64,000 nucleotides of DNA from Elusimicrobiota bacterium. GTDB taxonomy: Bacteria; Elusimicrobiota; Elusimicrobia; UBA1565; JACRDR01. Below, piece by piece: positions 10,041-50,800 of the stretch. The stretch spans positions 2,470-66,469 of the forward strand of contig JAPLKK010000033.1 in assembly GCA_026388115.1 (NCBI GenBank), in the 5' to 3' direction. The first letter of the stretch is position 1. Every line of letters begins with the position of its first letter. The position numbers were made by a program, and so were the translations under genes. The notes under the pieces are model-generated. The model was given only the letters and a program-made list of their open reading frames with translations. It had not been told where the DNA came from and ran no database searches.

Positions 10041-13285
<3,245 letters not shown>

Positions 13286-13299
<14 letters not shown>

Positions 13300-14998: not shown

Positions 14999-15045
14999 CA
15001 GCTGAACACCTCGTGCGACCGCGAGAGGACGGCCATGCGCCGAGT

Positions 15046-17594: not shown

Positions 17595-18332
17595 TCAGCC
17601 GAGCGCGCTCACCGCGAAGGCCGCCGCGGTCCCCAAGACAGTCGCCACGACCGTTCCCGCCGTGCTTTGCTCGCTGTGGGCCTCGGACAAGAGATAGGCT
17701 CCGCCGATATACAGGATGAAGCCGGCGAAATATCCCAGGAAGATCGTCAGCGTCTGGGGCGAAGGCTGGATGAAGAAGGTCAGGATGACGCCCGCGATCG
17801 GCGCCAGCGCGTCCACGACCAGCAGGGCGGCGGCCCGCCGGTCTGAATTCTCCGAGTTGAGCATCACGGCGACGGTGTTCATTCCGTCGATGGCGTCGTG
17901 CGAGATGACCGCGACGCCGACGGTGATGCCGATCGCGTGGCTCACCTGGAACGCCAGGCCGAGGCAGATGCCGTCGGTCATGCTGTGGCCGATGAGCGCC
18001 ACCGCCGACAATATCCCCGCCTGCGGGTGGCGGTGCCCCGCGTCGCAGTAGCCCTCGCCGTGGTGGATCGCGATCGCGCGCTCCAGGACGTGAAAGATAA
18101 GATAGCCGGCGGCGAAAGCCATCATCGGCCCGCGGGCGGAGACGCCGAGGTCGCGCACGCGCGTCATGATCTCCGGGAGGATGTCGAAGGTCACCAAGCC
18201 GAGCATGACGCCGGCGGCCAGGCCCATCAGCAGGTGCATCCGCTTGCGCAGGCGGAACGCCCCCAGGCCTCCAAGGAGCGTGGAGACGAGCGAGGCCGCG
18301 CAAAAGCCCATCGGCAGAAGGTAGCGGTTCAT
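17595..18332 (-). CDS. zupT: ZIP-family zinc transporter (ZupT-like)
   Basis: Eight TM segments with His-rich motifs HHGEGYCDAGHRH and HSMTDG..SHDAIDG, characteristic of ZIP permeases. Confidence 0.85.
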   Translation of the reverse strand: MNRYLLPMGFCAASLVSTLLGGLGAFRLRKRMHLLMGLAAGVMLGLVTFDILPEIMTRVRDLGVSARGPMMAFAAGYLIFHVLERAIAIHHGEGYCDAGHRHPQAGILSAVALIGHSMTDGICLGLAFQVSHAIGITVGVAVISHDAIDGMNTVAVMLNSENSDRRAAALLVVDALAPIAGVILTFFIQPSPQTLTIFLGYFAGFILYIGGAYLLSEAHSEQSTAGTVVATVLGTAAAFAVSALG

Positions 18333-30746: not shown

Positions 30747-31886
30747 TTGCGCAATCCGGACACGGAGTCGGTCCTCCTCGCCGACAGTTCGGCCGAAAAC
30801 CTGGCCTCCGCGAAATCGTGGCTGAAGACCGCCAAGGTGGAGACCGTCCGCGTCGACGCCGGCGACACCAAACGCATTGCCGAGCTGGCGCGCGGCAAAG
30901 ACGTGCTCATCAGCTGCGTCCCCTATTTCTTCAACCTCGAGCTGGCGAAAGCCGCGATCCACGCGAAGACGAATTTCATCGATCTCGGCGGCAATACGGA
31001 CATCGTCTTGAAGGAACTGGCGCTCACGAGCCAAGCCGAGAAGGCCGGCGTGACCCTGCTACCCGACGTGGGGCTCGGCCCGGGCATGCTCTCGACCATC
31101 GCGGCCCACGGCATCAGCCAGCTCGACAAGACCGACGAGGTGCATCTGCGCGACGGCGGCCTGCCGCAGAAACCGCGGCCGCCCATGAACTACCTGCTGA
31201 CCTTCTCGGAGCACGGGCTGATCAACGAGTACGTCGAGGACGCCTACGCCATCCGCGACTACAAGCGGGTCAAGGTGCCGGGCCTCTCCGAGGTCGAGGA
31301 GATCGACGTGCCGACTTTGGGCCGCTGCGAGGCGGCGCACGCCTCGGGCGGGCTCTCGACCTTGGCCCACACCTACGAGGGCAAGATCCGCACGATGGAC
31401 AACAAGCTCATCCGCTATCCGGGGCACATCGGCATCATCAACGCGATGAACGCGATGGGGTTCTTCGGCACCGAGAAGATCGCCTTGAGCGGCGGGAGCC
31501 TCAAGCCGCGCGATCTCAGCGCGAAGCTCTTCCGCCAGCACTTCGAGCGGCCCGCCGACAAGGACCTCGTCATCATCCACAGCACGGTCCGCGGCGTCAA
31601 GGACGGCCGGAAAGCCGAGGTCGTCTACGACATGCTCGACTACTACGACGACAAGAAGAAGATGACCGCCATGATGCGCACGACGGGATTCCCGGCCGCC
31701 ATCGTCGCCCAGATGCTGGCCTCCAAGGTCATCAACAAGCCCGGCGCCTTCCCGGTCGAGCTCGGCATCCCGCCGGAGCCGTTCTTCGCCGAGATGCACA
31801 AGCGCGGCTTCAACCTGTCCTGGAAGCTGAGCTTCCCCGAGGGCGCCGCCGCCAAGCCTCACCCGCACGCCAAGGCGGCGGCTTAA
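30747..31886 (+). CDS. Saccharopine dehydrogenase-family protein, 5'-truncated (NAD(P)-binding Gly-rich N-terminus absent)
   Basis: [14 protein letters not shown]...[47 protein letters not shown] and the rest match Sacchrp_dh. The first ~30 aa (GxGxxG Rossmann start) are missing. The ORF begins at TTG next to a repeat copy, and no upstream in-frame Rossmann segment exists. Confidence 0.6.
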
Positions 31887-31894
31887 CGCGCGAC

Positions 31895-32797
31895 GTGGCG
31901 GCCCAGCGCGTCGTCTCCCTGATCGCGTCGAGCACCGAGATCGTCTACGCGCTGGGCTTGGGCGAGCGCCTGGTGGGACGCTCGCAGGAGTGCGACTTTC
32001 CGCCGCAAGCGGGGCAGCTGCCGGCGCTCACCGCTCCCAAGCTCAACGTCAACACGTCGAGCAAGGGCATCGACGATCAGGTCCGCAAGCTCGCCGCCTC
32101 CGGCGCTTCCGCCGACGCGTTGGACGTCGAGAAGCTCAAGGCGCTCGCTCCCGACGTCGTCATCGCGCCGGCCCGGGGCAGCCTGTTCTCGGTGAGCCTC
32201 AAAGACGTGGAGGCCGCGCTGGGCGGCCGGGCGGACGTGAAGATCGTCGCGCTCGAGCCGAACCGGCTCGAGGACGTCTTCAACGATATCCGCAAGATCG
32301 CCGACGCGCTGGAAGCGGCCTCGGCGGGCGAGGCCCTCGTCCATCGCCTGCGCTCGCGCATGCACGCGGTGGCGGAGAAGGCCGCCGAGCTGCCGCCGGT
32401 CCCGGTCGCCTGCCTCAGTTGGCTCGACCCGCTGATGCTCGCGGGCGGCTGGATACCGGAGCTGGTGGCGATGGCCGGAGGGCGCAGCGTGGAGGCCGAG
32501 CGAGGCGGCGAGTGGAACGCCCTCGCCGGCTCCGCGCCGGAGGCCATCGTCGCGATGCCCTGCGGCTTCAATCTGATGCGCACGCGCCTCGAGATGTCCG
32601 CGCTCGCCTCGAAGCCGGAATGGTGCCGCCTCAAGGCGGTCCAGTCCGGCCGCACCTGCGCCGCCGACGGCAACCAATTCTTCAACCGGCCCGGCCCGCG
32701 CTTGGCCGAGTCGCTCGAGATCCTGGCCGAGATCCTGCATCCGAAGGAGTTCGCCTTCGGCTACCAGGGGACGGGCTGGGAGCCTTATCGTCTTTAG
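31895..32797 (+). CDS. BtuF/FhuD-like periplasmic-binding-protein-fold protein (cobalamin/siderophore-binding type), no signal peptide detected
   Basis: GTG start. [27 protein letters not shown] is the typical class III SBP N-terminus. No signal peptide is encoded in frame upstream. Confidence 0.55.
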
Positions 32798-32818
32798 AAA
32801 ACGCGCAAGGAGAGACCA

Positions 32819-33267
<449 letters not shown>

Positions 33268-33833: not shown

Positions 33834-33907
33834 TGGAGCGGGCGAAGGGAATCGAACCCTCGTCTCTACCTTGGCAAGGTAGCATTCTACCATTGAACCA
33901 CGCCCGC
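33834..33907 (-). tRNA. tRNA-Gly (anticodon GCC)
   Basis: The reverse complement GCGGGCGTGGTTCAATGGTAGAATGCTACCTTGCCAAGGTAGAGACGAGGGTTCGATTCCCTTCGCCCGCTCCA folds as a cloverleaf with anticodon loop TTGCCAA. Confidence 0.9.
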
Positions 33908-34105: not shown

Positions 34106-37100
34106 ATGGTTAAGAATCTCCGCCGGTCGCGCATCCTCCCCATCTTCCTGGCCGCCAGTCTTCTTTTGAGCGGGCCCGCCGGCACGGGTTGGGCGCAGAC
34201 CGTCGGCGCCGCGGCGCATGGCGCCGCCTCGGCCGTGGGCATCTCCGCGGCGGCCGGCGCCCAGGTGGTCGCGCTCCCGCAGGCGAGCGTCCTGCCGCTC
34301 GCGCCTGTCGCCTTGCCCGGCGCCTTGCCGCTCGCCAATCCGTTCCCGCTTTCGGCGCCGCAGACCGCGCCGGCCGCCTCGGCGCAAACGGCCGAAGCCC
34401 TCGCGACGGCCCTGCCTCAAGCCGCCGCTTTGGCGCCGGCGGTCGAACGGCATCCCGTCATCGACCTCATCAACCGCCTCCAGCAGGCGGGCGTCGCCCT
34501 TCCCGAGACGATCGACTCGCCCGCGGACGCGGCCAAGCTGCGCGCCGCGGCCGAGGCCCTGCCCGCCGGCGGCATGCGCGACACGCTCGTCCGACTGGCC
34601 GTGGCGGTGGAGACGCCTCAGGGCCCGGCGCGGCAGGTCGCGCTGGACAACATCTTCGAGAACGGCGTCCCTCCGGCCGCGGCCGCTCCGCAGGCGGTCA
34701 AGCCGGGGCTATGGGAGCGCCTCGCGCAGTCCAAGCTCGTCCCCGCCTCGCTCAAGCGCTACGCCGCGGCCCGCGCAGAAGAGCGGCGTCCCAAGGCGCA
34801 GCCCGTCCCGGCGGATGCTTATAAGGTAAAGACCGACCGCCTGCGCTGGACACCCGACGCGGCCATGCTCGACCAGGCCGCGGCGCTCCCCGCGCCTGCC
34901 AAGGAAGTCGTCGGCCAGGACTTGGCGCTCGAGGCGCTGGAGTTCGGCCTCAAGATGTCGGGCGACGGGCACAACGTCATCATCACCGGCCCGGACGGCT
35001 CCGGCCGCGAGACCGCGACGCGGCGCATGCTCGAGCGCATCGCGCCCTCCATGGACACGCCGCCGGACCTCGTGGCGGTCACGAATCTCAAGCAGAAGGA
35101 GCAGCCGCTGGTGCTCGAGCTGCCGGCCGGCACCGCCGCGTCCTTCAAGGCAGGGCTGAACGGCCTGCTCTCCGCGTTCAAGAAGGGGCTTCCCGCCCTG
35201 CTCGGCTCGGGAGAAGCCGCGGCGAAGAAACACGAGATCCGCGACGCGTTCCAGGAGGCCGCCGCCGGGGCCGAGGCGAAGTTCCAGGAGCAGGTGTCGC
35301 AGGTCAAATTGGCCAACGGCAAATTCGGCGTGATGGCCAAGCCGCAAGAGGACGGCGAGGGGCACGTGACCCTCGTCATCGCCCCGACCTTCAACGGCGA
35401 GCCCCTCGCCAAGGGGGATGAGAAGGCGAAGATCGAAGCCGGCGCCTTCACGGCCGCGGAGTGGGAGCAGGCGATGAAGGAGCTCCCCGGCGTCGCCCAG
35501 CAGGTCAGCCAGCAGTACATGCAGCTGGCGCGGATGATCGCCGCCGCCGGAGCGCAGGCGCAGGGCGCCATCGTCGCCATCGACGCCAAGACCGCGGCGG
35601 CGGCCGTGCATCAGCTCGGCGCTCCGCTCAAGGCGCTGGCCCGGCCGGAGGCCGCGCACGACGACGCGCGCCACGCCGAGCTGCAGAAGCGCGCCAAGCT
35701 TTTGATGCAGGAGTTCGAGAAGACGCACGGCTCCAAGCAGGTGGGGCCGTTCCTGGTCGTCATCCGCATGGCGCAGACCAAGGAAGGCACCCAGCCGGTG
35801 CCCTCGCTGTCCAAGGACGGAAAGCCGGTCGGCCGCGAGACGCTGATGGGCATGATCTTCTCCGGCGAGATGTCCGAGGCCGACTGGGAGAAGATCCAAT
35901 CCGAGATCGAGACCTTCGTCACCGAATATCGCGACGGGCTCAAGAAGCTGACGGAACAGCTCGAGAAGGAGCACGGGGCGCTCCACGCCGGCGACCCGCC
36001 GCCCACCGCGGCGCAGGCCAAGGCCTCGGCCTATGTGGATATGCTCCTCGCGGACATCGCCAAGAACTACCAGGCGTTCCTGCCGCAGCGCGAGGAGGGC
36101 GGCAATCCCCTTGCCGCGCTCATGGCCGCCAAGAAGGGCGACCCGGCCGAGGCGTACGTCGTGAGCGTCCTCGCCGCCAACCAGCCCGGCTCGGGCGCGC
36201 CCGTCATCTTCGAGCGCTCGCCCAGCTTCGAGAACCTGTTCGGCTCCGTCGAGGGCGACGGCCGCGTCCTGATGATGCCGGGCGCCGGCATGGTCAAGGC
36301 CGACGCCCCGGGCGGCCCGGAGCTCAAGAGCGGCTCGTACGTGAAGGCCAACGGCGGCTTCCTCGTGCTCAACCTCATGGACGTCCTGCGCGAGCAGGGA
36401 ACCTGGGCCGCCCTGATGCGCGCCGTTCGCGCCGGCCAGGCCGAGATCGCGGAAGGCGGGGCCATGGGAGCCCTTGTAGGCGCCAACGCCAAGCGCCACC
36501 CGGTCCAGGCCAAGGTCAAGGTCGTGCTCATCGGCTCGACCTCGTTGAAGATGCTCCTTGCGGAACACGACCCCGACTTCGCCCGCCACTTCAAGGCCGC
36601 CTCGCAGTTCGAATCGTCCATGAACATGGCGGTCGAGAACATCGCCGGCTACCTCCACTTCATGAGGTCGATGGCAGAGACGTCCACCGCGGGCGTCCTC
36701 TCCATGACGCGCGACGCCATGGTCGAGGTTCTCCAGTACGCCGCGAAGCTCGCGGGCTCCAACGAGAAGCTGACGGCGAGGTTCAGGCCGCTGCTCGACC
36801 TCATGACCGAGGCGACCTACTGGGCGCGCCAGGCCGGCCATAGCGAGGTCACGGGCTCCGACGTGGCCGCCGCGATCCAGAAGAAGCTGGACTTCGAGGG
36901 CAGCGCGCGCCGCCACATGCAGGAGATGTACTCGAAGGACATCTTCCATATCCAGACCGAGGGCACGGCCGTCGGACAGACGAACGCGCTCACGGTCTAC
37001 GGCGACTTCGGCTTGCCGACGCGCGCCACCGTGACCGTGAAGGCCGGCGGTTCGGGCGTGACCGCGCTCGACGACAAGGCGGGCCTCGCGGGGCCGTTCT

Positions 37101-37642
37101 ACAAGCAAGGCGTCGCGGTGCTCGAGAGTTTCCTCGACCACGTCTTCGCCAAGGAGCGCGGCCTGCCGTTCGAGGTCCGCGTGAAGAAGGAGCAGCTGTA
37201 CTCTCAGATCGACGGCGACTCCTCGACCTCGACGAACATCTACGCGACCCTGTCGGCGCTGTCCGGCGTGCCGATCAAGCAGTCGATCGCGATGACGGGC
37301 TCGGCCGACCAGTTCGGCAACGTCCAGCCGATCGGCGGCGTGAACTACAAGATCGAGGGCTTCTACGACATCATCACGGCGAAGCTGAAGGCGGCGGGCA
37401 AGTCGCTCGACGGGACGCAAGGCGTGATCATCCCGGCGACGAACGTGCCGGACCTCATGCTGCGCGCCGACATCGCCCAGGCCGTCAAGGACGGCAAGTT
37501 CCAGCTGTGGGCCGTCACGCACGTCAGCCAGGGCATCGAGATCCTGACGGGCGAGGCGTACTCCGAGATCGTGCGCAAGATCCAGCTCCGCGCGGACAAG
37601 GTCCGCGGCGGTGGAAAGTCCGGCGCGTCGAAGCCGGATTAA
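34106..37642 (+). CDS. LonC/LonB-like (COG1067 'lon_rel') protease with signal peptide, degenerate AAA+ Walker A and intact Ser-Lys catalytic dyad
   Basis: Start chosen at MVKNLRRSRILPIFLAASLLLSGPAGTGWAQT (signal peptide). An Ala/Pro-rich linker follows. The AAA-like module has VVGQDLALEALEFG...ITGPDGSGRET (34988-35014) with Arg in place of the Walker A Lys. The C-terminal S16 domain has QIDGDSSTS (catalytic Ser codon ~37220) ...AMTGSADQFGNVQPIGGVNYKIEGF (catalytic Lys). Confidence 0.8.
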   Translation: MVKNLRRSRILPIFLAASLLLSGPAGTGWAQTVGAAAHGAASAVGISAAAGAQVVALPQASVLPLAPVALPGALPLANPFPLSAPQTAPAASAQTAEALATALPQAAALAPAVERHPVIDLINRLQQAGVALPETIDSPADAAKLRAAAEALPAGGMRDTLVRLAVAVETPQGPARQVALDNIFENGVPPAAAAPQAVKPGLWERLAQSKLVPASLKRYAAARAEERRPKAQPVPADAYKVKTDRLRWTPDAAMLDQAAALPAPAKEVVGQDLALEALEFGLKMSGDGHNVIITGPDGSGRETATRRMLERIAPSMDTPPDLVAVTNLKQKEQPLVLELPAGTAASFKAGLNGLLSAFKKGLPALLGSGEAAAKKHEIRDAFQEAAAGAEAKFQEQVSQVKLANGKFGVMAKPQEDGEGHVTLVIAPTFNGEPLAKGDEKAKIEAGAFTAAEWEQAMKELPGVAQQVSQQYMQLARMIAAAGAQAQGAIVAIDAKTAAAAVHQLGAPLKALARPEAAHDDARHAELQKRAKLLMQEFEKTHGSKQVGPFLVVIRMAQTKEGTQPVPSLSKDGKPVGRETLMGMIFSGEMSEADWEKIQSEIETFVTEYRDGLKKLTEQLEKEHGALHAGDPPPTAAQAKASAYVDMLLADIAKNYQAFLPQREEGGNPLAALMAAKKGDPAEAYVVSVLAANQPGSGAPVIFERSPSFENLFGSVEGDGRVLMMPGAGMVKADAPGGPELKSGSYVKANGGFLVLNLMDVLREQGTWAALMRAVRAGQAEIAEGGAMGALVGANAKRHPVQAKVKVVLIGSTSLKMLLAEHDPDFARHFKAASQFESSMNMAVENIAGYLHFMRSMAETSTAGVLSMTRDAMVEVLQYAAKLAGSNEKLTARFRPLLDLMTEATYWARQAGHSEVTGSDVAAAIQKKLDFEGSARRHMQEMYSKDIFHIQTEGTAVGQTNALTVYGDFGLPTRATVTVKAGGSGVTALDDKAGLAGPFYKQGVAVLESFLDHVFAKERGLPFEVRVKKEQLYSQIDGDSSTSTNIYATLSALSGVPIKQSIAMTGSADQFGNVQPIGGVNYKIEGFYDIITAKLKAAGKSLDGTQGVIIPATNVPDLMLRADIAQAVKDGKFQLWAVTHVSQGIEILTGEAYSEIVRKIQLRADKVRGGGKSGASKPD

Positions 37643-39051
37643 TCGGCGCCGCCGAGCTTCCTCAGCTCTTTCTGCGCCGAGCGCGCGGTCTCGGGCGACG
37701 GGTTGCCCTCGAGCGCCCTGCGGAAGAACTTGACCGCATAGCCGGTATTCTTCTCCTCAAGGAGGCAGAATCCCATCCCCGCGTAGGCGTCGGCCACGTA
37801 ACGGTCGCGCAGGCCGCTCTTGATCGCCATGGTCAGCGAGTCCATGAACGCGACTCGGGCCGCGCTGAAATCCTTCTGCTGCAGGCGCAGCCCGCCGAGA
37901 AGGCTCAGGCGGCGGATCTCGCGCGGGTCCGTCGGCACCAGCAAGGCCGTGGCCTCGCCCAGTTCGTCTTGCGCCTGGGCAAACATACCCAGCCTCAAGA
38001 ACTCTTCGGCCGCGTTGAGATGCTTCTCGATGCGTTCGTCGACTGACAAGCCCGCGAGGTCCCGCTCCGGGACCCGCACCGGCACGGCAGGTGCCTTCGC
38101 GCCCCCCCAGCGGAAGGTTGCGCTCAATCGGTGCGCAGAGCCCAGGTCGCCCAGCGGTGTGAACGCGTAATCGAGCTGGAACCCGTCATGCCGCCAGCCG
38201 AAGCCGGCCGTGATGCCGATGCCGGCGTCGTTGCGGCCGTTGAATCCCACGCGCGCCGCGAAGGAAGGGGCGAGCCAGCTTTCCGCGCCGAAAGAGAATA
38301 AAGCATTGTCGGAGCGCTCCTTGATCAGGTCGAGCTCGAACGTCACGGGCAAGGCCAGGAGATTATCTACCCAGTCGAAGGAAGCTGGAGCCTCGGCGCC
38401 TGAGCGGACCTCATAAGCCGCGCCGAGCCGCAATTGGGCTGGCAGCTTCTCGTTGGCGCTCTGGAAGCGCACTGTGGAGCCCATATTTTGCAGGGCCGCC
38501 GCGAAGAGCCAGCGCCGCCTGCCCGGCGTCGCATAGAGGATGCCGCCGTCGGCCGCGTAGGCCGAGCCTGAAACATTGTCGATCGACTCGCGAATGAACT
38601 TCACCGCGCCACCGACACGCAGGCCTTCGGCCACCTCCCGGCCCAATCCAAGCCCCAGCGCCGTGTCCGTGATACCGAAAGACGCGCCCGTGCCGTCGGG
38701 GTTCGACACGGTCGTCCGGGGAACGTGTCCGTAGGTCAGGTAATTGAGCTGGAGGCCGAGGCCCTGGGGCGTGGCGAAGCCGACGTACTCCTGCGTGATC
38801 GGCGAGACATACTGATTGTGCATCAAGGTCGCCTCGTAGCGCCCGCCTCGCCCGAGCGCGGCGGGATTGTAGATGAGGGCCTCGGCGTCGGAGGCGAGCG
38901 CCGCCTGGGCCCCTCCCATGGCCACGGCGCGCGCCCCCGCGTCGAGCGAAAGGAAATCGAAGGGCTCGGCCCCCGGGCTCGCAGCCAGCGCCCGGCCGCC
39001 CGCGGCGAACGCGGCCAGAGCCACCCCGATCGCTGCCGCAGTCCTCTTCAT
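37639..39051 (-). CDS. PorV/PorQ-like (UPF0164-type) outer-membrane beta-barrel protein with C-terminal TPR-like extension
   Basis: Signal peptide, then the family-defining LDAGARAVAMGGAQAALASDAEALIYNPAAL motif and an alternating beta-barrel pattern. The last ~130 aa form TPR-like helices. The ATG overlaps the stop of the upstream giant gene (ATGA). Confidence 0.6.
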   Translation of the reverse strand: MKRTAAAIGVALAAFAAGGRALAASPGAEPFDFLSLDAGARAVAMGGAQAALASDAEALIYNPAALGRGGRYEATLMHNQYVSPITQEYVGFATPQGLGLQLNYLTYGHVPRTTVSNPDGTGASFGITDTALGLGLGREVAEGLRVGGAVKFIRESIDNVSGSAYAADGGILYATPGRRRWLFAAALQNMGSTVRFQSANEKLPAQLRLGAAYEVRSGAEAPASFDWVDNLLALPVTFELDLIKERSDNALFSFGAESWLAPSFAARVGFNGRNDAGIGITAGFGWRHDGFQLDYAFTPLGDLGSAHRLSATFRWGGAKAPAVPVRVPERDLAGLSVDERIEKHLNAAEEFLRLGMFAQAQDELGEATALLVPTDPREIRRLSLLGGLRLQQKDFSAARVAFMDSLTMAIKSGLRDRYVADAYAGMGFCLLEEKNTGYAVKFFRRALEGNPSPETARSAQKELRKLGGAD

Positions 39052-41837
39052 CGAATGATCGCGAGCACGCGAGTGGCGCCCACTTGGCCTTGGCTCGTCA
39101 TGACCGCGATGTAACCTCCCGTCGCCACGTCGCGCCCGTCCTCATTGCGGGCGTCCCACTGCAGCCTGCCGCCGGCCTCGCTCGTCATCCGCTTGACGCG
39201 CCGCCCGCTCACCGTGTAGATGGTGACGACGGCTCCCGGAGGCAGCTTATTGAAAACGATGCCGGAGTCCGGGTCCGAGGGGCTGAAGGGGCGCCCCTCG
39301 TCCGGGTTGCCGCCGTTCGGCTTGAACGGCACTGGGTAGATCTGGACCTCGTTCAGGGCGGCGTGGGCGGGCGCCGCGAAGAGGCCGAAGAGGCTGAAGT
39401 GCGGCGTGTTGCCCGTGACCCGATGGTTCACCGCGTCCACGGTCGACAAGAAATCCTTGCGCCATTGCTCGGCGACCGGGTCATAGGCCCACATCTGCAG
39501 GTCCGCGGCGCGCAGACCCGTGCCGTCTACGATGCCGTCGTTGTCGGCGTCCGGGTATGAGATCGAGACCGCCGCGGTCATGCCGTTGACGAGCGCGCTC
39601 TGCCCGTTGTCGAGCGTGATCTCGACGTAATCGTTCGCAGGCAAAGGGTCAGCGTTGAGGACGCGCGCCAGAGCGCGCACGGCCGCCGCGGTGAACGCCG
39701 GCGCGTCGAGCGGGTTATTGACCACGGTGATCGTGACCGTCGAGGAAGCGAGCGCCCCGGCGGGGATCGCCACCGAGGAGAGCTGGCCCGAGCCCGCGTC
39801 TCCCGACTGGACGGTGGTCGCGGCCCCGTTATTGACCTTCTGCTGCGTCTGGACGCTGCCGCCCCCGAGGTCCGTCTCTTGGATGTCGGGCTGGGCCGGG
39901 TCCACGCCGACCGTGATAGCCGGCGGGGTCGCGTCGGCCCGGCCCGAGAAATCCGTGGCGAGGGCGCGAAGGTCATAGGAGCCTGGGGCGAGCAGGTTCG
40001 CGTTCCAATGCACGTACCATGGGGGCGCCGAGGCCGGGTTAGGATGGTTGAACTCGGCGGCGGCCAGCGCGGCCCAGACCGCGGCCGAGGACGGCTTGTA
40101 CTGGAACAGGACCTGGCGGGTCTGCGCGACGTCCCCTAGGACGATCTGGGCCTGGACGGTGATGCGGTTGCCGATGATCTTCTTCCCCGCCTCTGGCGTC
40201 GCGATCGCGGCGCGCACGCCGTCCAAGCTGTTGAGCGCGGCCGCGGCGGCCGACACGCCGGCGTCCTGCTCCTCGACGCCGCAACGATTGACGGCCCGCA
40301 GGCTGAAGCGGTAGGCGGGGCTGGAGACCAGGACGTCGGTGAGGTAGCCCGTCGCCGACGCCGGAAGCTCGGCAAGCGGTTGCACGTAATCGACCTGGCC
40401 GGTCCCCGCGTCGTAATAGAGCTTGTAGCCCGTGACGCCCTCGGAGGGCGATGGAGACCACTGCAGACGGATCCGATCGCTCGCCAGCGACATGGCGGAG
40501 AGCCGGCCCGCCGGAAGCGGCGCCTGGGCCTGCGTGACCAATTGGACCGGCGGGGAATAGTCGCTGGCGAGGCCGTCGCCGTTGATCGCGCGGATCTTCG
40601 CGAAGGCCGGCAGGCAGGCAAGCAGGTAGTAGTCCGTGGCCGAGGTACCGATGCCTTGGAAGACGCGGTTGAACGTCGCGCCGTCGGTGGAGACTAAGAG
40701 CTCGACCGGCGTTCCGGGTGGATCGGAGCCCATCGACCAGGCGAACGCCGCGCTGGTGATCTCGACATCGGCGACGGCCAGCGCCGGAGGGTCCGCCAAG
40801 GTGTAGGCCTGCGCCGGCGCCGAGCGGAGGCCCTCCCCCGTCGCGTTCACGGCGGAGACCACGAGGCGCTGCAAAGTGTTCGGCGCCAGGCCCCCTGACA
40901 CGAACGGCAGAGCGTCCGCGACCCCCGCGGATACCGTCGGATTGGAAGCGTAATAGAGCCGGTACTGCGATGCCCCGGCGACCGCGGTCCATGTCCACAG
41001 CAGGGCGGAGTCGCCGATCGCCGAGACGGACAGGCCCATGGGCGCGGGCGGGCCCGGATCCGCCGCCGTCGCCGCCGCGCCGGCGTACGCCGTGCCGATC
41101 CCGTCGCCGTTGACCGCCCGCACGCGGTAGGAATAGGCGGTCGAGGGCGACAGCCCGGCGTCAACGGCAGCAAGACCGGCGCCGGCCCATCTCTTGACGA
41201 AGCTCGCGCCGGCAGAGCGCTCCAGCTCGAAGATCGTCCCGTCGGGATCGTCGTTGCCCGACCACGCCAAGCTCGCGGAGACCGACGAGACCGCCGTGAC
41301 GGACAATGACGACGGCGCGCCGGCGAGCGTATAGCGCGAGGCGGAGCCCGAGTTCGCCAAACCGCCCGCGTTGAACGCCTGGACATGGTACGCCCCGTAG
41401 GGGAGATTGGCCTGCAGGCCTGACTGCACCCAAGTCGTCGCGGCAGCCGCCAGGTCCCCAGAGAGGTTGGAGGTGCCCGACATCACGCGGTAGCCTGCCG
41501 CGTCCGGCGCATGCGGTGTCCAGGACCATTCGATGGAGGCGCCATCGAGCGCGCGGGCGCCGAAGGCCGACGCGGGAACGGGCGCGCTCAGGTCGTTGGT
41601 GCGCGCGGCAAGCTCGGGAGTAAAGGCGCTCTTGAGCCCGGCGCCGTTGACGGCTCGGACCTGATAGAAGTAGCTCGTGCCGGGCGCGAGCCCCGTGTCG
41701 ATGAACGCGAAGGAGCTTTGCGAGGCGAGCGTCGAAGCGGGGCCGCCGGTGGAGCGCTGGAGCTCGTAGACCGTTTGAGCGGGATTGCCTCCCGCCGCCC
41801 AGGCGAGAGCCACGCTCGTGGGCGACTGGGCCGTCAC
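39048..41837 (-). CDS. C-terminal portion of giant surface protein: Fn3-like tandem domains plus T9SS-type C-terminal sorting domain
   Basis: It continues the same alternating Fn3 module architecture as the upstream 3531-aa ORF. The terminal ~70 aa, AVVTIYTVSGRRVKRMTSEAGGRLQWDARNEDGRDVATGGYIAVMTSQGQVGATRVLAII, match the Por secretion-tail / FlgD-Ig-like CTD. It starts in a +1 frame relative to the upstream ORF's TGA. Confidence 0.8.
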   Translation of the reverse strand: MTAQSPTSVALAWAAGGNPAQTVYELQRSTGGPASTLASQSSFAFIDTGLAPGTSYFYQVRAVNGAGLKSAFTPELAARTNDLSAPVPASAFGARALDGASIEWSWTPHAPDAAGYRVMSGTSNLSGDLAAAATTWVQSGLQANLPYGAYHVQAFNAGGLANSGSASRYTLAGAPSSLSVTAVSSVSASLAWSGNDDPDGTIFELERSAGASFVKRWAGAGLAAVDAGLSPSTAYSYRVRAVNGDGIGTAYAGAAATAADPGPPAPMGLSVSAIGDSALLWTWTAVAGASQYRLYYASNPTVSAGVADALPFVSGGLAPNTLQRLVVSAVNATGEGLRSAPAQAYTLADPPALAVADVEITSAAFAWSMGSDPPGTPVELLVSTDGATFNRVFQGIGTSATDYYLLACLPAFAKIRAINGDGLASDYSPPVQLVTQAQAPLPAGRLSAMSLASDRIRLQWSPSPSEGVTGYKLYYDAGTGQVDYVQPLAELPASATGYLTDVLVSSPAYRFSLRAVNRCGVEEQDAGVSAAAAALNSLDGVRAAIATPEAGKKIIGNRITVQAQIVLGDVAQTRQVLFQYKPSSAAVWAALAAAEFNHPNPASAPPWYVHWNANLLAPGSYDLRALATDFSGRADATPPAITVGVDPAQPDIQETDLGGGSVQTQQKVNNGAATTVQSGDAGSGQLSSVAIPAGALASSTVTITVVNNPLDAPAFTAAAVRALARVLNADPLPANDYVEITLDNGQSALVNGMTAAVSISYPDADNDGIVDGTGLRAADLQMWAYDPVAEQWRKDFLSTVDAVNHRVTGNTPHFSLFGLFAAPAHAALNEVQIYPVPFKPNGGNPDEGRPFSPSDPDSGIVFNKLPPGAVVTIYTVSGRRVKRMTSEAGGRLQWDARNEDGRDVATGGYIAVMTSQGQVGATRVLAIIR

Positions 41838-44800
41838 CGCGGCGCCGCGGGCGGGCCGGGCGACGACGTCATCGTCATCCCCGAGCGGACGAAGGCCGTC
41901 GGCACCCCGTCGCCGTTGAGCGCGCGGACCTGGTAGGAGTAGGCGACGAGAGGCGAAAGCCCCGTGTCCAGGTACGTCGTCGAGCGCACATTGGCCACGA
42001 ACAGGAAGACGCCGCCGGTCGAGCGGTCCACCTCATAGAGCGTGCCCGCTGGGTTCGAATTGGCCGACCATCTCAAGCTCGCCGTCGTCGACGCCGCCGA
42101 CACGACCAAGCCCGCCGGCGCCACGGCCAAGGTGTAAGCCGATACGGGAGGCAAGGAGACGGACGCGCCCCCGTGGTTGAAAACCTGCACGGTCATCGGG
42201 CCGTACTGCGTATTCGTGGACAAGCCCGTCTGCAGCCATACGACGGTGAACGGCGGCAGATCGCCGGAAAGGTTCACGCCCGCGCTGAGGACCCGGTAGC
42301 CGGTCTCGTTCATCGAGTTGCCGGTCCAAGTCCAGCGGATGGCGTTTCGGGCGACCGCCGCGCCCGAGACGTTGGTCGGCGCGGGCGGAGCGTCCGCCGA
42401 GGGAGTGACGACGGCCGCCGCCGGGGTGTAGGCGCTGAGCACGCCGTCCGCGTTGACGGCGGCCAGGCGGTAGTAGAAGGTCGTCGCGGGACTTAAGTAT
42501 CCATCGGTCGCCGCGGTGTCCAGCGTCGTGATCCAAGGCGAGAAATTCGCGGTCGCCCCCGTCGTCGACCTCTCAAGCCGGTAAGGCGTGCCGGATGGAT
42601 TGCCCGCGGCCGACCAGGAGAACGTCGCCGAGGTCGAAGAGATGCGGACTGCGGCGAAGCCGGCCGGCGAGGCGGCAAGGGTAGCGCGCGAGGCCAGGCC
42701 AGAATCGGCCGTGCCCCCCGAATTGAAAGCCTCGACGAGGCAAGGGCCGTAGATTCGGTTGGGCGACAGGCCCGTCTGAGTCCAACTGTTCAGGCTCGGC
42801 GGGAGGTCCCCGGAGATATTCGCCGTTCCTGCCAGGACGCGATAGCCGGCGGCGACAGCCGAGTTGACCGTCCATCTCCATTGCACCGCGCTCGTGCCCA
42901 AGGCGACCCCCGCAAAACCGGTCGCCGCCGCCGGCGCGCTGGCATCCGCCGTGCGCGCGGACGTCACCGTTTGCTGAGAGGTGTCCGAGGACGGGCTGAT
43001 CGCGACTATCGAGAAGAGGTACGTCGTCGCGGGCAGCAGTCCGCCGAACGTCACCGTGGCCGTCGCGGTCGTCTGGCTCAGGAACGGGGAGCCTGCGGTG
43101 GACGCGGAGACTGTGTATCGCGTGCCTTGAGGGTTGCCGTTGGTGGACCAAGATAGCGTCACGGACGTGGTGCTCACCGCGAGGGGATAGAACATCGTGG
43201 GAGGGGCGGCCAGCGTGCACGCGGAGGCGGCCGAGCTTGAAGTGCTGACGCCGCTCCCGTTGAAGGCCTGCAGCAGGTAGGGGCCGTAGCACGTGGCCGT
43301 GGACAGCCCATCTTGCATCCACGAGGTGGCGTCCGGGAACAGGTTCCCCGAAAGATTCGTGGCGCCGGCCATCACGCGATAGCCGAGGGCGTTGGTCGCG
43401 CCGCTCGACCAACTCCACGCGATGCGGGTGGTGGCTACGCCCTTGCCGGCGAACCCCTTGGGCGCGACCGGAGGGCCTTGTGCCGCGGTGAGCGTGGAGG
43501 CCATGACGCCGAAATCCGTGAATAGGCCTTCGGCGTTCTTGGCCCGCACCTGATACCAGTACATCGTCGAAGGGTTCAGCCCCGTGTCCAAGAACGTCGC
43601 CGCCGTCGTCAGCGCGATGGAGACGAACGTCCCGCTCGTCGAGCGCTGCAGATCGAAAAGCGTCGTCACCGGATTCCCATTGGCCGACCAGCTCAAGCCG
43701 ACGGCGGACGAGGACGCCGCGACCGCGGCCAAGCCGGAAGGCGCGGCCGCGAGGGTGTAGCGGGAGGCGGGGGCGGAAGTGGCGTTGGTCGCCCCGTTGA
43801 AGGCCGTCACCCAATACGGACCGTAGAGAGTGTTGGGCGTGAGGCCCGTCTGAAGGAAGGTGGTGGTGTTGCCCGCGAGGTCGCCGGACACGTTGGCGTT
43901 CCCGGAGATGACGCGATAGCGCGTCCCGAGGACGGACTTGTCGTTCCAGGACCAGAATATGCTGCGCGTGGAGACGGGCGTGCCCGCGAAGATCGACGGC
44001 GGAGCGATGAGCGGCGGCAGCGCGACCGGGCCCGCCAGCGCGCTGTCGATGGAGTCCCGATTCCTGCCCGCGACCTTGAAATAGTAAGTGGACAACGGAG
44101 CGAGGCTCGTGTCGGTGAAACTCGTCGCCCCCGTCGTCAAGAGGGAGCGCCAAGCGTAGCTCACGCCGTCGGTGGATCGAAAGATGTCCCAAGTCGTGCC
44201 CGCGGGGTTGCCGTTCGCCGACCAGCTCAACGTCGCGCTGCTCGGCCCGACCGGAGATATCGCCAGACTCGTTGGCGGCGCCGCCGATGTGGCCCCCGGA
44301 AATTGGTAAGAATCCGCCGTACCAGTCGAATTGAAAGTGCGGAGGAAGCGGTAGTAGGTGGTGTTCGTCGATAGGCCCACCTCCAGCCAACTCGTGGCGC
44401 TTGCCGGAAGATCCCCGGAAAGGTTGACCGTGCCGGACATGACGCGATAGCCCACGACGAGAGATGCGGGGGCGGGCCAGAACCAGAGCATCGAGCCGGT
44501 CCCCATGGCCCGACCGGAAAGCCACGACGCGATGGGCGGCCCGGCTGCCTGGATCGCGAACGGTCCGGCTGTCCGCACATTCCCGGCGCGGTCCCATGCC
44601 GTGAAGATCGCTTGATTGGTCGCCCCGCAAGGCGAGATTCCATTGCAGACCATGGAAGCGGCCGAGTTGGATAGGTTCAGCAGGGCCCCGGTCAGCGTTT
44701 GCGCCGCCGTCGTCCCGTCGGCACCGGACAAGGCGGATGCCAAAGGAGCGGCCCTTGCGATCCCACCATTAGTCCACGACCCGATGTACAGTTTCCCGTT

Positions 44801-47800
44801 GAAGGCCGCGAGGCTTACCAGACTACGCGGCGACCAAGGCCAGTTTACCACCAGCCAATTCACGCCGTCGGGCGTGGTGAATAGCGGCCCGTTTGAATTG
44901 GCCGCGTACAGTTTTCCGTTGAACGCGGACAGCGCCGTGATCGTCCCCTCTACGGTGGATCCCGCCGTCCAATTGAGCCCGTCGGCGGATGAGGCGATCT
45001 GGCCGTGGTAGTCGGTCCCGGCGTACAATCGTGCGCCGAATATCGCGAGGCTGTAGACATTCCCGTTCACCGCCGGGTGCGTCCAGCTCACGCCGTCAGC
45101 CGAAGCGTAAATCCCCCCGGAGCCTCCAGCATAAAGCTGTCCGTTGAATGAGATCAACGAGAGGATCGGAGGGCCGGGCGCAGGGTTTTGGTACCAGTTG
45201 ATGCCGTCGGGAGAACTGTACAGCGCCGAAGGTACCGCGCCCGTGCTCGCCGCGTAGAGCCTGCCGTTGAATGAAGCCAGAGCGGTGATGGAGGCGACGC
45301 CGTCCCCCGCCACCGCGTAGTTCCGCGTCCAGGCGCCACCTCCGCCCGTGCTGTATACGGCGGCGCCTGCGACGGTACCCGCATAGAGCCTTCCGTTGAA
45401 AGCCGCAAAACTCCTGACCGAGCGGCCGCTCGTGACGAATTCCGTCGACCAGGCGAGCCCATCCGAGGATGAGTAGACGGCGCCGCTATTCGCGGAGCCC
45501 GCGAATATCTTTCCGTTGTAGGAAGCCAGGCTCTGCACCCCGGAATTCCAATAGGGCCAGTCCATGTTGGCGAAGTCCTGCCACGCGCTTCCAGCCGACG
45601 ACGAGCACATCACCCCGAAGCCCTGCACGAAGCCCGGGGTGTCGTGCCCGTCTCCAACGAGCGCGAGCGCGTTCGCCGAGACCGCCAGGCCGCTGACCGC
45701 GTCCTGGACGCCGATCTGCACCGTCACGGTCGAGCGCAGGTCGTTCACCTGCGATTCGCTCACGGCCGCGCCGCTCGAATTGAGGCTCGCGAAAGCCCCG
45801 GCCTGGGCGGGAGGCGTGAAGTCGGTCACGAAGCTGAACGTCGGCGACCACGGCCCGACGCTGTCGCCGCTCAGCGCCACCCGCCAGTAGTACGTGGCGG
45901 CCTCAGTGAGAGTGAAAGTAGAGAGATAGGCCGCGTCCGCCGTCGGCAGGCCGGTACTCGCCACGACTGCCGGCGTCGAGATGCCGATGACGATGCTTGC
46001 CGGCGAAAAGCCGGGGTCGTTGTTCGACACTTGAAGGAGATAGGACGCGCCGGAGGACATGCCGGCCACGACCGCCGTGCTGGCGCCGATCCAATCGAAG
46101 TTGGGCTGGAGGTTCACGTAGGCGCCGTTGGCCGGGTAGGTCGGCAGGAGGCTCACCGGCGTGAGCGCGAGGGATACGGGGCCCGCGAAATCGGTCGCGA
46201 TCCCCTCGCCATTCTTGGCCCGGACCCAGTACGTGTAGGTGATGCCGGGCAGCAGAGCGTCGGTGAACGTAGGCGCCGCGCTCGATTGGAAGACGGCGGC
46301 CAGGGTCGTGCCGGTCGAGCGTTCAAGGTCCCATATGGTATTGGGCGGATTCCCGTTGGGCGACCAGGAGAGCGTCGCGCCGCCGGCGCCGAGGGGCGAG
46401 ATCGAGAACTGGGCGGGCGCCGCCGCCAAGGTGAAGCCCGAATTGGAAGACGAGTCCGCTGTGCCGGATGAATTGAAGGCGCGCGCGAAATAGGGACCGT
46501 AGCGGGTGTTGATCGACAGTCCCGTCTGCAGCCAGCTCGTCGTCCCCGCCGGAAGGTCGCCGGAGATGCTCGTCGATCCGGACATGACCCGTAGACCGGC
46601 CGCGTTCGGCACGCTGTTGACCCAGCTCCAGCGGATCGCATCCGGGCCGGCGGCGGCATGCGCGAACAAGCCCGGGGCCGTCGGCGCCGCGAGGTTCCAG
46701 CCCGAGACGTTGACGGGAACCGGACCGGCGAAGGCGGTGAAATAGCCGTCGCCGTTCTTGGCCCGGACCTTGTAGTAATAGGTCGCCGAGAGCGTCAGGC
46801 CGCCGTCGGCGACACTCGCCGCGACGCTGGATTGAAAGACCGGCGCGTATAGCACGCCGTCGGTCGAGCGTTCCAAGTCCCAGAACGTCCCGCTCGGATT
46901 CCCGTTCGCGTCCCAGCTCACGGTCGCACTGCTCGGGCCCACGGCGGTCGCCGCGAGATTCGCGGGGACCGCCGCCAAAGTGAAGGCCGAAGCGGACCAC
47001 GAGTCGGCGGCGCCGGTGGAATTGAAGATGCGCACGAAGTACGGTCCGTACCTCGTGTTCGTCGCGAGGCCGAGCTCCAACCACACCGTCGTGCCCGGCG
47101 GCAGGTCGCCCGAGATGTTCGTCGTCCCGGACATGACGCGAAATCCGGAGATCATCGTAGCGGTGCTGACCCACGACCATTGGATCGCATCCACGCCCAC
47201 GGCGCTGTGCATGTAGTTTGCCGCAGCCGGCGGCGGCGAGGACACCACGATCGCGTAAGGTCCGGCCGCGAGCACGTTCCCCGCGAGATCGGAGACGGTG
47301 AAGATCACTTGGTTGGTGGCCGCGCAAGGCGAGGCTCCGCCGCAGGTCACCGTATTGGATGAATTGTTAAGCGCGAGACCGAAGACGCTCAGCGTCTGCG
47401 CCGCCGTCGTGCCGTCCGCGCCGCCGAGGTTGGGGAAGAGCGGATTCTTTAGGATGATCCTGCCGTCATTGGTCCCGGCGTAGAAATTGCCGGAAAACCC
47501 CGCCAAGCTCGCGATCCCGCCTGCCGCGGCGGTGCTGAAGACGAGCATCCACCGCGCTCCATCAGGCGAGGCATAGATCGCGCCGTCGGGTCCCGCGCCG
47601 GCATAGAGCTTGCCGTTGAAGACGGCGAGGCTCCGGATCGCGGTCTCTCCGGTGCCGGTCAGGACCGCGGCCCAATCGGAGCCGTTGGCCGAAGCGTAAA
47701 CCGCGCCCGCCGGCTCGGTCCCCGCGTAGAACTTGCCGTTGAAGGCGGCCAGGGTCCGGATAGCCGTCGCCCCCGGCAACGATGCCTGGCTCCAGTTCAC

Positions 47801-50800
47801 GCCGTCGACGGAGGCGAACAGGATGCCGGCGCCTCCCGCGAAGAGCCTGCCGTTGAACGCGCCGAGCGTCCCGATGGAAGGACCCGGAGCGGGCACCCGG
47901 CTCCAACCGGCGCCGTCGGACGACGCATACAGCATCGACGCGGCGCTGTTCGAGGCGTATATCCTCCCGCCGAACACCGTCAGGCTCGCGATGCCCTGAG
48001 GCCCCGCCTGCGCCGGCGCGGTGTAAGCCGCCGACCAGGTGGTCCCGTTGAACGATGAGAATATCTTCCCGGCCCCATAGGTGCCGAAGAAGAGCTTCCC
48101 ATTGAATACGGCGAAGCTTTGGATCTGCGTCTCGCCGGCGCCGCCCGGGAACGTGCTGCTGAAGACAAGATTCCAGGTGACGCCGTTCGCCGAGGCATAC
48201 AATCCCGCGTTGTTCGCGGTCGCGGCGTACAATCTCCCGTTGAAGGAGGCAAGAGCCGGCACCGATACGGCCGCGGTGCTGGAAAAGGTGGGCGTCATGT
48301 AGTAGGAATCGACCCAACTCTTGCCTGCGTCGGTCGAATAGAGGACGCCGCAGCCCCCGCTCGAACCCGGGCCGTCATGCCCGTCCCCCGCGAATGCAAG
48401 GCGGCCTTGGGTGACCGCAAGACCGGTGCCGGCGTCTTGGACGCCGAGCCGGGCCGCTCCCCCGAACCCCGGATTGATCTGCGCCTCGCCGACCAGCGTG
48501 GAGGTCCCGCTGAGACTGGCGAAGGCCGCGGACTGAACGGGCGGCGTGAAGTCCGCGTAGAACTTGGACGCCTGCGACCATGCCCCGAATGCGCCGTTGT
48601 TCGCGGCGACGCGCCAATAGTAGGTGGTGTTGTCGGTGAGGGTGAAGGTGGAGAGGTACGCCGCGTCCGCCGTCCGCACGCTCGTGCTCGTCAAGACGGC
48701 CGGAGTGGATATGCTGATCACGATATTGGACGGCGTGAAAGCCGGGTCGTTGTTGGAGACCTGGAGATAGTACGCCGACCCCGCGGGCAGAGCGGCGGCC
48801 GAGGTGGTGCTGAGCCCGATCCAATCGAAGTTGGGCTGGATGTTGACATACGATCCATCGACTGGAAACGTCGGGACGGCGGTGGAGAGCGCCGGAAGGG
48901 TGATGACCGTGGCCGTGGCCGCGAACGCGGTGAAGAAGCCGTCGCCGTTCTTGGCGCGCACTTGGTAGAAATAGGTCGATGCGGGCAGCAGGCCGTAGTC
49001 CGTATAGCTCGCCGCCGCGCTCGACTGGAAGATGCTGTTGACGTTGATGCCGTCGCTCGAACGCTCAAGGTCCCATACGGTGCCCGCCGGGTCGCCGTTC
49101 GCCGACCAGCTCAACGTCGCGCTGCTCGCTCCGGCGACGCTGCCGGCGAAGCCGGCGGGCACCGCCGCCAGCGTATAGCCGGAAACGGAAGCCGAATCCG
49201 CCGTCCCGCTCGAGGTGAAGACTCGGACGACATAGGGACCGTAGCGCGTGTTCGTCGAAAGGCCGGTCTGCAGCCAGCCGGTCGCGTCGGGCGGCAGGTC
49301 TCCCGACACGTTCGCGCTCGCGGCCATCACGCGATAGCCGGACGGGTTCGGCGAGGCGCCGGTCCAAGACCATTGGATCGAATCGACGCCCGTCGCGCGA
49401 CGGGCAAAGCTCAGGGGCGCGCTCGGCATCGATGAAATGAGGACGGCGAACGGACCGGCCGTGAGCACGTTGCCCCCCAGGTCCGAGGCCGTGAAGAGCA
49501 CCTGGTTGGTCGCGCCGCACGGCGAGACCCCGCCGCAAACGACCGAATTCGACGAGTTCACCAAGCTGAGGTTGAAGGCGCTGAGCGTCTGCGCTCCGGT
49601 CGCACCGTTCGTTCCCGTGAGCCCGGCCTGGACCGGCGTGAACTGGTATATCTTTCCGCCGTCGGTCCCGGCATACAGCTTTCCGTTCAATGCCGCCAAG
49701 CCCTCGACTCCGCCTGCCGCGGCGCTGCTGAATACGGGCATCCATGTCGCCCCGTCCGGCGAGGCATAGATCCCCCCCATGTATGTCCCGGCATACAGCT
49801 TCCCATTGAAGACAGCAAGGCTCCGGATGGAAGCTCCGCCGGTGCCGGTCAGCGCCGGAGTCCAATCGACGCCGTTCGCGGAGCCGTAGACCGCACCGCT
49901 GGGCTCCGTTCCGGCGAACAACCTGCCGTTGTACGAGGCGAGACTCCGGATCGCGGTCGTTCCCGGTATCGAGGTCTGCCCCCAGTTGACGCCGTCGGCC
50001 GAGACGAAAAGCACGCCGTTGGCGCCCGCATAGAGCCTGCCGTTGAACACCCCGAGCGTGTTGACCGACGGACCCGGAGAGCCCACCGGGCTCCAGCTCG
50101 CCCCGTCACCCGAGACATAGATCACCGAGGTCACGCTGTTCACCGCGAACAGCTTCCCGTTGAACACGACCATGCTCTCGATGCCCTGCGCCCCGGCCTG
50201 GACCGGCGAAGTGAAGACAGCCGTCCAAGTGCTTCCGTCGGGCGAGGAGAAGATCTTTCCCTTTCCGTAGGTGCCGAAGTACAGCTTTCCATTGAAGGGG
50301 GCGAAGGATTGGATCTGGGTCTCGCCGGCTCCGCCCGGGAACGTGCTGCTGAAGACCTGGGTCCAGCTGCCGCCGCTCGCCGAGACGTACAATCCCGCGT
50401 TGTTCGTGGTGCCGGCATAGGCCTTGTTGTTGAAGGCCGCAAGGGCCAACACGTGAGTCGTGCTGCTGCCGGCAAAGACGATGTTGGGGCTCGGCGAATC
50501 GATCCAAGTCCGGCCGGCATTGGTGGAATACAGGACGCCGAAGGGGCTGCTCCAGCTGGAATAGTCGTGCCCGTCCATGGTGGGCGGGCTCGGAAAGACC
50601 GCGAGGCCGGTGCCGGCGTCTTGAACGCCGATCTGCGCGGTCACGTTGGCCGCCAAGCTCTGGAGCTGAGCTTCGCCCGCCGGCGGATAGGTCGAGACGC
50701 GGGTGCCGAAACCCGCGGCCTGAGCCGGCGCGGTAAAATCGGTCTGGAATCTCGCGGGAAAGAAACCCATGCCGGTCTGGATCAACCACGGTCCGAGCAC

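Follow-up and report, generated by a model that had tools for sequence, protein, structure and literature searches.

Lon proteases are described as enzymes of the cytoplasm or of the organellar matrix, with LonB anchored in the membrane. Reviews treat LonA and LonC as soluble cytoplasmic enzymes (PMC9569914), and the only S16 proteases outside the cytoplasm for which we found a description are small Lon-PDZ proteins (for instance DdcP/YlbL) that have no AAA ring (PMC8767453). We analysed a 64,000-nt stretch of chromosomal DNA (GC around 67%) from an Elusimicrobiota bacterium (GCA_026388115.1, contig JAPLKK010000033.1, positions 2,470 to 66,469 of the forward strand), called the window throughout, which holds a gene for a LonC-like protease with a predicted signal peptide. 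The protein is probably a LonC-type, ATP-independent, ring-forming serine protease and chaperone that is exported via Sec. The literature searched yielded no report of a LonC that is exported or periplasmic. The LonC kind itself is already known, and the novelty is the exported topology plus the remodelled architecture.

The best match by both sequence and fold is LonC (MEROPS S16.007), represented by MtaLonC of Meiothermus taiwanensis and TTC1975 of Thermus thermophilus. MtaLonC combines the activities of an ATP-independent protease and of a holdase chaperone (PMC3391209, PMC13069640). Its Walker-A-like motif reads GPPSLGKHE, the Walker B Glu is missing and the sensor and Arg-finger residues have been lost (PMC3391209). 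Neither MtaLonC nor TTC1975 shows ATPase activity (PMC3391209, PMC13069640), even with a Lys in the P-loop (PMC3391209), and phosphate is the only ligand bound by the MtaLonC P-loop (PMC13069640). The LonC-defining features are an insertion after the catalytic-Lys helix, C-x3-G-L-x-G/E, together with a phi-x2-A-phi motif in helix alpha5 (PMC3391209). The window protein has the same domain order (an AAA-like domain split by the helical-hairpin insertion HHE, then LID, then S16), the same Ser-Lys dyad, both protease-domain insertions and no Walker B Glu. It is 21-27% identical to MtaLonC and differs from it in several respects: only the window protein has the signal peptide, the roughly 85-residue Ala/Pro linker and the orphan N-terminal module (N-module), its insertion is tandemly duplicated, its P-loop has Arg-Glu where MtaLonC has Lys-His, and it contains no Cys.

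The closest relatives outside the Elusimicrobiota clade of the window protein belong to a LonC-like family of about 800 aa (AAA_32, LonC_helical and Lon_C), with 32-43% identity in the core. They share the LRW...IIGQ segment, the G-x-x-G-[ST]-G-R P-loop and the Walker-B-like motif, but they lack a signal peptide, have one insertion unit only and are normal in Cys content. Archaeal LonB, the second-best fold relative, has its insertion between Walker A and Walker B, as here, but its ATPase is active, its insertion carries the transmembrane helices that anchor it and its catalytic parts point into the cytoplasm, whereas the insertion of the window protein has no such helices. DdcP/YlbL of Bacillus subtilis has an S16 domain outside the cytoplasmic membrane that acts without ATP (PMC8767453), as proposed here. 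It is, however, a protein of around 39 kDa made of a membrane anchor, a PDZ domain and a Lon domain, with no AAA-like ring or basket, and the window protein lacks the PDZ. With DegP/HtrA the likeness is one of proposed principle only, that of an ATP-free, self-compartmentalising, oligomeric envelope protease with holdase activity; there is no homology, the window protein has neither a trypsin-fold nor a PDZ domain, and its cage would consist of a Lon ring and a dead AAA+ ring. The parts of the gene and of its product, with models from AlphaFold2 (AF2), are as follows.

34106..37642, + strand: LonC-like protease with predicted export, whole gene, from the list of open reading frames (ORFs) and translation; 1178 aa
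34106..34195, + strand: Sec-type signal peptide, residues 1-30; predicted cleavage GWA/Q (30/31, the slash marking the site); sole hydrophobic segment
34196..34447, + strand: disordered Ala/Pro-rich linker, residues 31-114, from composition; AF2 pLDDT <50 except for a short strand at 53-56
34253-34279, + strand: linker motif AGAQVVALP, common to the closer homologues in the alignment
34337-34354, + strand: linker motif NPFPLS, also common to the closer homologues in the alignment
34448..34660, + strand: orphan four-helix N-module, residues 115-185, with R-H-P-V ... L-Q ... G ... L-P-E ... D-A ... A-L-P-x-G
34817..35107, + strand: N-terminal part of the AAA-like alpha/beta domain; counterpart of MtaLonC residues 6-100 in the alignment
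34838-34855, + strand: LRW motif, in the first part of the AAA-like domain
34988-35014, + strand: degenerate P-loop GPDGSGRET, residues 295-303, with Arg301 at 35006-35008; opposite MtaLonC GPPSLGKHEA
35108..35635, + strand: HHE unit 1, residues 335-510; beta-hairpin 407-429 (AF2)
35636..36175, + strand: HHE unit 2, residues 511-690, tandem duplicate; beta-hairpin 549-570
36176..36925, + strand: rest of the AAA-like module; AAA_32 residues 697-836, LID residues 867-927
36353-36388, + strand: Walker-B-like GGFLVLNLMDVL, no Asp-Glu; opposite MtaLonC GGYLILDALSL
36926..37585, + strand: S16 Lon protease domain, from Pfam Lon_C and residue-by-residue alignment to MtaLonC
37220-37222, + strand: catalytic Ser1039 (DGDSS); aligns with Ser582 of MtaLonC
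37349-37351, + strand: catalytic Lys1082 (GGVNYK); aligns with Lys625 of MtaLonC
37376-37414 and 37472-37486, + strand: LonC-type protease-domain insertions, from alignment to MtaLonC

LonC identity and probable ATP independence

The 1178-aa product read from ATG 34106 is 100% identical, over the same length, to NCBI protein P0001 from an Elusimicrobia metagenome-assembled genome, which is annotated only as "AAA family ATPase". Pfam recognised AAA_32 (E 7e-28), LonB_AAA-LID (E 4.5e-18) and Lon_C (30.2 bits vs a cutoff of 21.1), with LonC_helical below threshold (22.1 bits vs a cutoff of 24) and no Pfam match to LON_substr_bdg, the N-domain of LonA. The best solved relative was MtaLonC (4fwd; phmmer E 1.3e-57), which matched in two stretches, 244-388 and 679-1160, that flank the large insertion. 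For a single-chain AF2 model built on 74 sequences (pLDDT 84.8, pTM 0.71), the top Foldseek match was the full-length MtaLonC cryo-EM structure 8k8v_A (E 3.3e-40, TM 0.81, target-normalised), followed by archaeal LonB (3k1j, Thermococcus onnurineus; E 1e-25), with LonA far behind. The original prediction, made from the letters of the window, had called the gene a LonC-like protease that parallels the ATP-independent LonC enzymes, and the motif, domain and predicted-fold matches bear this out.

The Ser-Lys dyad, described as intact in that prediction, aligns as expected with the dyad of MtaLonC. Both residues are invariant in 38/38 clade representatives and, since these have diverged to 35-60% identity, the protease is read as active throughout the clade. 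After the Lys helix, TAKLKAAGKSLDG stands opposite CKALG--LSG of MtaLonC and is longer and without Cys; another clade member, P0007, retains CKHRGLTG at this LonC-specific insertion. The segment IAQAV aligns to VLEAV of MtaLonC, the phi-x2-A-phi motif of helix alpha5, and the protein ends in a short Lys/Gly-rich tail. Judged by its S16 dyad, LonC insertions, degenerate AAA motifs and HHE, as aligned and as modelled, the protein is a LonC variant. The soluble cytoplasmic location ascribed to LonC would not apply here, but this trait is descriptive and not structural, and we file the protein as a LonC variant for that reason.

Several other assignments were tried and rejected. Comparison with the LonB model TIGR00764 (lon_rel), to which the original prediction had pointed, gave 118 bits, well under the equivalog cutoff of 516.6; the protein has no GK[ST] or DE and no transmembrane segment in the insertion. 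A DdcP/YlbL-type Lon-PDZ protein was set aside with no PDZ match at E <= 1 and with AAA_32 and LID present. As for a Lon-like anti-phage protein such as BrxL, no PADLOC family matched at E <= 0.01 and BrxL itself was a distant fold match only. A cargo of type IX secretion was likewise discarded, no match of the C-terminal domain (CTD) or Por_Secre_tail type being found in Pfam or NCBIfam.

The P-loop reads GPDGSGRET with Arg for Lys at exactly 34988-35014, where it had been predicted, and no Lys appears on realignment. The motif G-x-x-G-[ST]-G-R is found in 36/38 clade representatives. Walker B was inspected in the same set, and the position reads D-E in none of the 38, so the Walker B Glu is absent; sensor and Arg-finger positions were judged by alignment to MtaLonC alone. 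Arg also occupies the P-loop "Lys" position in about 3/4 of the sampled LonC-like relatives of around 800 aa, which have no signal peptide, most of them reading G-x-x-G-T-G-R-T. Because most non-exported relatives share it, Arg301 is an inherited family trait and not an export-linked inactivation. The earlier view of the Arg as an inactivation particular to this protein is thus not sustained, Arg being the majority state in the short LonC-like relatives. As far as the sequences tell, the ATP independence of the family is older than the gain of the signal peptide in this lineage. As to the suggestion that an ATPase-dead protease suits a compartment free of ATP, ATPase motifs are missing and the signal is conserved, and the ATP independence came before the export. 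We read the conserved P-loop as kept for structure or anion binding and not as an ATPase site, and the motifs suggest that the window protein acts without ATP.

The basket insertion (residues 335-690) is duplicated in tandem. It is about 355 aa long, whereas P0028 of the short family has an insertion of about 205 aa, and its two units match each other with an hhalign probability of 99.6% (E 7e-25, 123 columns). By the same method the short family's one HHE can be placed at two positions, residues 335-510 (99.3%, E 4e-20) and residues 524-688 (97.6%, E 3.5e-12). The insertion is predicted to fold into helical hairpins and beta-hairpins (AF2), and hydropathy gives no transmembrane segment. A natural basket-less variant also exists: P0022 (locus L010, 8001-10466, 821 aa) keeps the signal peptide, the linker, the N-module and a GPDGSGRKT motif, and the whole HHE insertion is absent.

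The N-terminal extension is equally remodelled. The long Ala/Pro-rich spacer announced in the original prediction is there (36% Ala and 13% Pro over residues 29-115), and the linkers of the clade are Ala/Pro/Ser-rich, 40-100 residues long and variable in length and sequence. The N-module is modelled with a pLDDT of 85-92 in the full AF2 model. All 19 sequences of one alignment (A3) have its H-P-V, which occurs in 31/40 of the clade N-termini listed. No fold match to the N-module was found in the PDB, the best E being 1.9 for a separate AF2 model (pLDDT 72), and the profile search retrieved only 2 short proteins, on contigs of 1-2 kb and both without a Pfam domain. The duplicated basket, the orphan N-module and the depletion of Cys had no place in the earlier picture of this protein.

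Signal peptide and the exported clade

Signal peptides were judged by n-h-c layout, hydropathy and cleavage-site pattern in the sequences. The window protein begins with MVKNLRRSRILPIFLAASLLLSGPAGTGWA, followed by QTV after the predicted site, that is, the n-region is basic, the hydrophobic core spans 13 residues and the cleavage site is of the small-x-small type. With a KD19 maximum of 1.55 the segment is too short and weak for a membrane helix, and a hydropathy scan found no other hydrophobic segment in the 1178 aa. The signal peptide noted in the original prediction was therefore found with its full layout, and 38/40 relatives of >=950 aa have the same type of N-terminus; both exceptions begin inside conserved sequence and look like gene calls that were truncated. 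Of the 116 LonC-like relatives that are shorter, just 2 were flagged for a signal peptide, and both are members of the exported clade (one partial sequence, and the basket-less P0022), so that none of the non-clade short relatives sampled has one. Cleavage sites of the A-x-A type are common in the clade, with ALWA/Q, SLSA/Q, AALA/Q, AFA/Q, GWA/Q and AWA/Q as examples. Export by Tat is unlikely, since the RR of the window copy is not conserved across the clade, and a lipoprotein was rejected as the protein has no Cys at all.

Gln directly follows the predicted cleavage site in at least 15 of about 40 clade members (Gln31, 34196-34198, in the window copy) and could cyclise to pyroglutamate. This is not a genome-wide habit here, as other proteins of the window with predicted export (the PorV-like protein and the ORF 16650-17594) do not have it.

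The content of Cys sets the clade apart. The mature clade proteins, of around 1100 aa, have no Cys in 29/39 cases and one in 10/39, while 208 shorter relatives have a median of 5. Per 1000 aa this amounts to 0.54 in the clade and 6.45 in the shorter relatives (p 2e-22), with about 7.8 in the other ORFs of the window. We take this depletion as an independent signature of an oxidising compartment, to which shared ancestry may contribute. The window also contains genes for TonB, Lnt and a PorV-family barrel, which marks the host as a bacterium with an outer membrane and with a periplasm. The conserved secretion signal in this LonC-like clade is real at the level of sequence; from it we infer export and cleavage.

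The position of the signal peptide depends on the start codon. The long + strand ORF ends at 37642 and offers two candidate starts, GTG 33968 and ATG 34106, the GTG lying in frame 46 codons upstream of the ATG and 61 nt from a divergent tRNA gene, beside its promoter-like site.

33834-33907, - strand: tRNA-Gly(gcc), promoter-like site at 33942-33913

In the homologous genes of the related loci compared, a Shine-Dalgarno sequence stands directly before the equivalent ATG. Three related loci have in-frame stops 16-19 codons 5' of it, and in L010 there is no alternative start codon between the upstream in-frame stop and the ATG. Given these homologues, and the tRNA-Gly and its promoter-like site close by, GTG 33968 is unlikely to be the true start. 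The original prediction had allowed that an upstream start at 33968 might leave the protein with no signal peptide; the comparison with homologues does not support that start and instead backs the ORF 34106-37642 as the gene, as does the match with P0001 over the same length. A regulatory RNA was sought in the 5' region, where the tRNA alone turned up.

A search based on the core returned thousands of LonC-like proteins, with 6289 at E <= 1e-10 among the candidates scored, and an exhaustive search of 1.84 billion representatives gave 4690 matches. The top 38 or so are 980-1241 aa long and align over the full query, after which scores drop and lengths fall to around 800 aa. The clade comprises about 40 sequence clusters, and all members with an organism name come from Elusimicrobia or Elusimicrobiota. 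The nearest relatives of around 800 aa, from WOR-3, Bacteroidota, Aminicenantes and other phyla, begin directly at LRW...IIGQ and have no signal peptide. In a neighbour-joining tree all signal-peptide-bearing sequences fall on one side of a single split, joined there by P0160 (an N-truncated call) and P0261, and the bootstrap for the exact exported clade is 1/100. Monophyly of the exported clade is likely from these sequences. What distinguishes the clade is not the P-loop Arg but the combination of export signal, disordered linker, N-module, doubled basket and near-total loss of Cys.

A scan of a genome collection with the P-loop pattern [TS]GPDGSGRE gave three true loci, all from Elusimicrobia. 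Two Promicromonospora loci (L007 and L008) also matched, at 28-30% identity over 53-76 residues, and are probably unrelated P-loop proteins. An outlying relative, P0188 (1502 aa), groups close to the clade's base; it is strongly hydrophobic over residues ~26-45, more like a membrane helix than a signal peptide, and has about 300 extra residues.

Proposed mechanism and alternative locations

In the mechanism that we propose, the precursor would be exported unfolded through Sec and cut by signal peptidase I after Ala30, and the mature protein of about 120 kDa would fold in the periplasm without cofactors or disulfides. A closed ring would form via the protease and dead AAA-like domains, as in MtaLonC, and the two tandem HHE units of each subunit would build a taller basket over the pore. 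The beta-hairpins of the basket (407-429 and 549-570) may hold non-native polypeptides, and cleavage at Ser1039-Lys1082 would proceed free of ATP with no nucleotide needed, the G-S-G-R loop being retained as a structural or anion-binding element. The linker and the N-module may serve as a tether, a gate or a propeptide. The role would resemble that of DegP, in quality control of envelope proteins and/or in the breakdown of imported polypeptides. On a balance that tips slightly in favour, the protein would be the first Lon-family machine with a complete dead AAA+ ring to have moved to the periplasm, a lineage-specific ATP-free cage with a doubled basket and an envelope role like that of DegP in Proteobacteria.

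Several points weigh against a periplasmic ring. LonC is described as cytoplasmic in the literature (PMC9569914), and the localisation of the clade is read from sequences alone. A subunit of 120 kDa in a periplasmic ring of about 700 kDa would be unusually large. The depletion of Cys could partly reflect common ancestry in one clade. In the window copy ATG 34106 has no obvious Shine-Dalgarno sequence, and in the five related loci and one further contig no conserved partner gene indicates a pathway.

Three other locations were weighed, and all fit the data less well than the periplasm. The one that survives best, though it is unlikely, is an uncleaved signal anchor, in which case the Ala/Pro linker would hold the ring on the outer side of the inner membrane, a mirror image of membrane-bound archaeal LonB. 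A positively charged n-region would still leave the bulk of the protein facing outward, and the hydrophobic segment leads into some 85 residues of flexible linker; but the core of about 13 residues is followed by Pro/Gly and, in most members, by a conserved small-x-small site (GWA/Q, AWA/Q, LSA/Q, ALA/Q), and the KD19 maximum of 1.55 is low for a membrane helix.

We consider it improbable that the protein is secreted onward to the cell surface or the medium, as a nutritional protease alongside secreted S8 subtilases. S8 genes do lie within about 5 kb in 3/7 places with a gene list, and the products of the window include a PorV-family barrel and a protein whose C-terminus is CTD-like. The LonC-like protein, however, lacks Cys as well as a lipobox, a beta-barrel and a sorting domain at its C-terminus, and its neighbours are convergent and not conserved, so that the S8 proximity may be chance.

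The least credible reading, an ordinary cytoplasmic LonC whose N-terminal segment is a mis-called start or a membrane-association helix with no export, has on its side that all characterised LonC enzymes are cytoplasmic (PMC9569914) and that the window offers a GTG in frame, 46 codons upstream, but the starts of homologues are fixed by Shine-Dalgarno sequences and stops, the signal-peptide layout is clade-wide and absent from the shorter relatives sampled, the clade is depleted in Cys, and the upstream extension would enter the tRNA-Gly promoter region.

An exported clade would contradict the current description of the family, in which LonC is explicitly cytoplasmic. If the periplasmic reading is true, the loss of ATPase activity in LonC would have been a pre-adaptation of an AAA+ protease to work outside the cytoplasm, and export offers one evolutionary reason for the ATP independence of LonC. 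A conserved exported clade would show that a cage derived from AAA+ proteins is reusable where no ATP is available, and the repertoire of envelope proteostasis would extend past the HtrA, Tsp and Ctp types. The doubled basket and the orphan N-module would then be defined structural targets for the study of ATP-free substrate capture.

Gene neighbourhood

The LonC-like gene appears to be monocistronic. Around it the window carries ordinary housekeeping and envelope genes, among them carAB, a TPP enzyme, TonB, Lnt and a ZIP transporter, and downstream of it, on the opposite strand, lie the following.

37639-39051, - strand: PorV-family barrel, 470 aa; NCBIfam PorV_fam (PorV/PorQ), 151 bits vs a cutoff of 90
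39048-41837, - strand: fn3-rich ORF, 929 aa; last ~70 residues weakly like a PorZ/FlgD-Ig type C-terminal domain
41834-52429, - strand: S8 subtilase, 3531 aa; S8 domain with fn3, DUF6242 and beta-propeller-like regions

The PorV-like protein has a signal peptide and a C-terminal TPR region and resembles an outer-membrane component of type IX secretion. Its gene is convergent with the LonC-like gene, and the stop codons of the two overlap (37639-37642). The original prediction had placed the protease beside a giant surface protease and a PorV-like barrel; both neighbours, the giant S8 protease and the PorV-family barrel, are real, but they are convergent and not kept in related loci. A functional link with PorV or S8 was rejected on these grounds. 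The neighbours differ among five related loci and one further contig for which only a gene list was used. The three places with a Peptidase_S8 gene within about 5 kb are the window, the JGI contig of P0006 and L009 (4777-6015), possibly by chance.

In a related genome (L010), a canonical LonA and a gene with a CLP_protease (ClpP) domain lie a few kb from the LonC-like gene. The presence of the canonical LonA implies that the putatively exported protein adds to the cytoplasmic Lon and is not its replacement.

A few minor features were seen in passing. The 3531-aa and 929-aa ORFs overlap by 4 nt and may be translationally coupled or may be one gene split by a frameshift. Upstream, the ORFs 30818-32797 (+ strand; Peripla_BP_2) and 31990-33267 (+ strand; C-terminal SEC-C) overlap by about 800 nt in different frames. 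In L009, a gene of 2288 aa (11295-18161) with weak matches to Peptidase_M50 and to AAA_2/ClpB_D2-small starts one base after the stop of the LonC-like gene.

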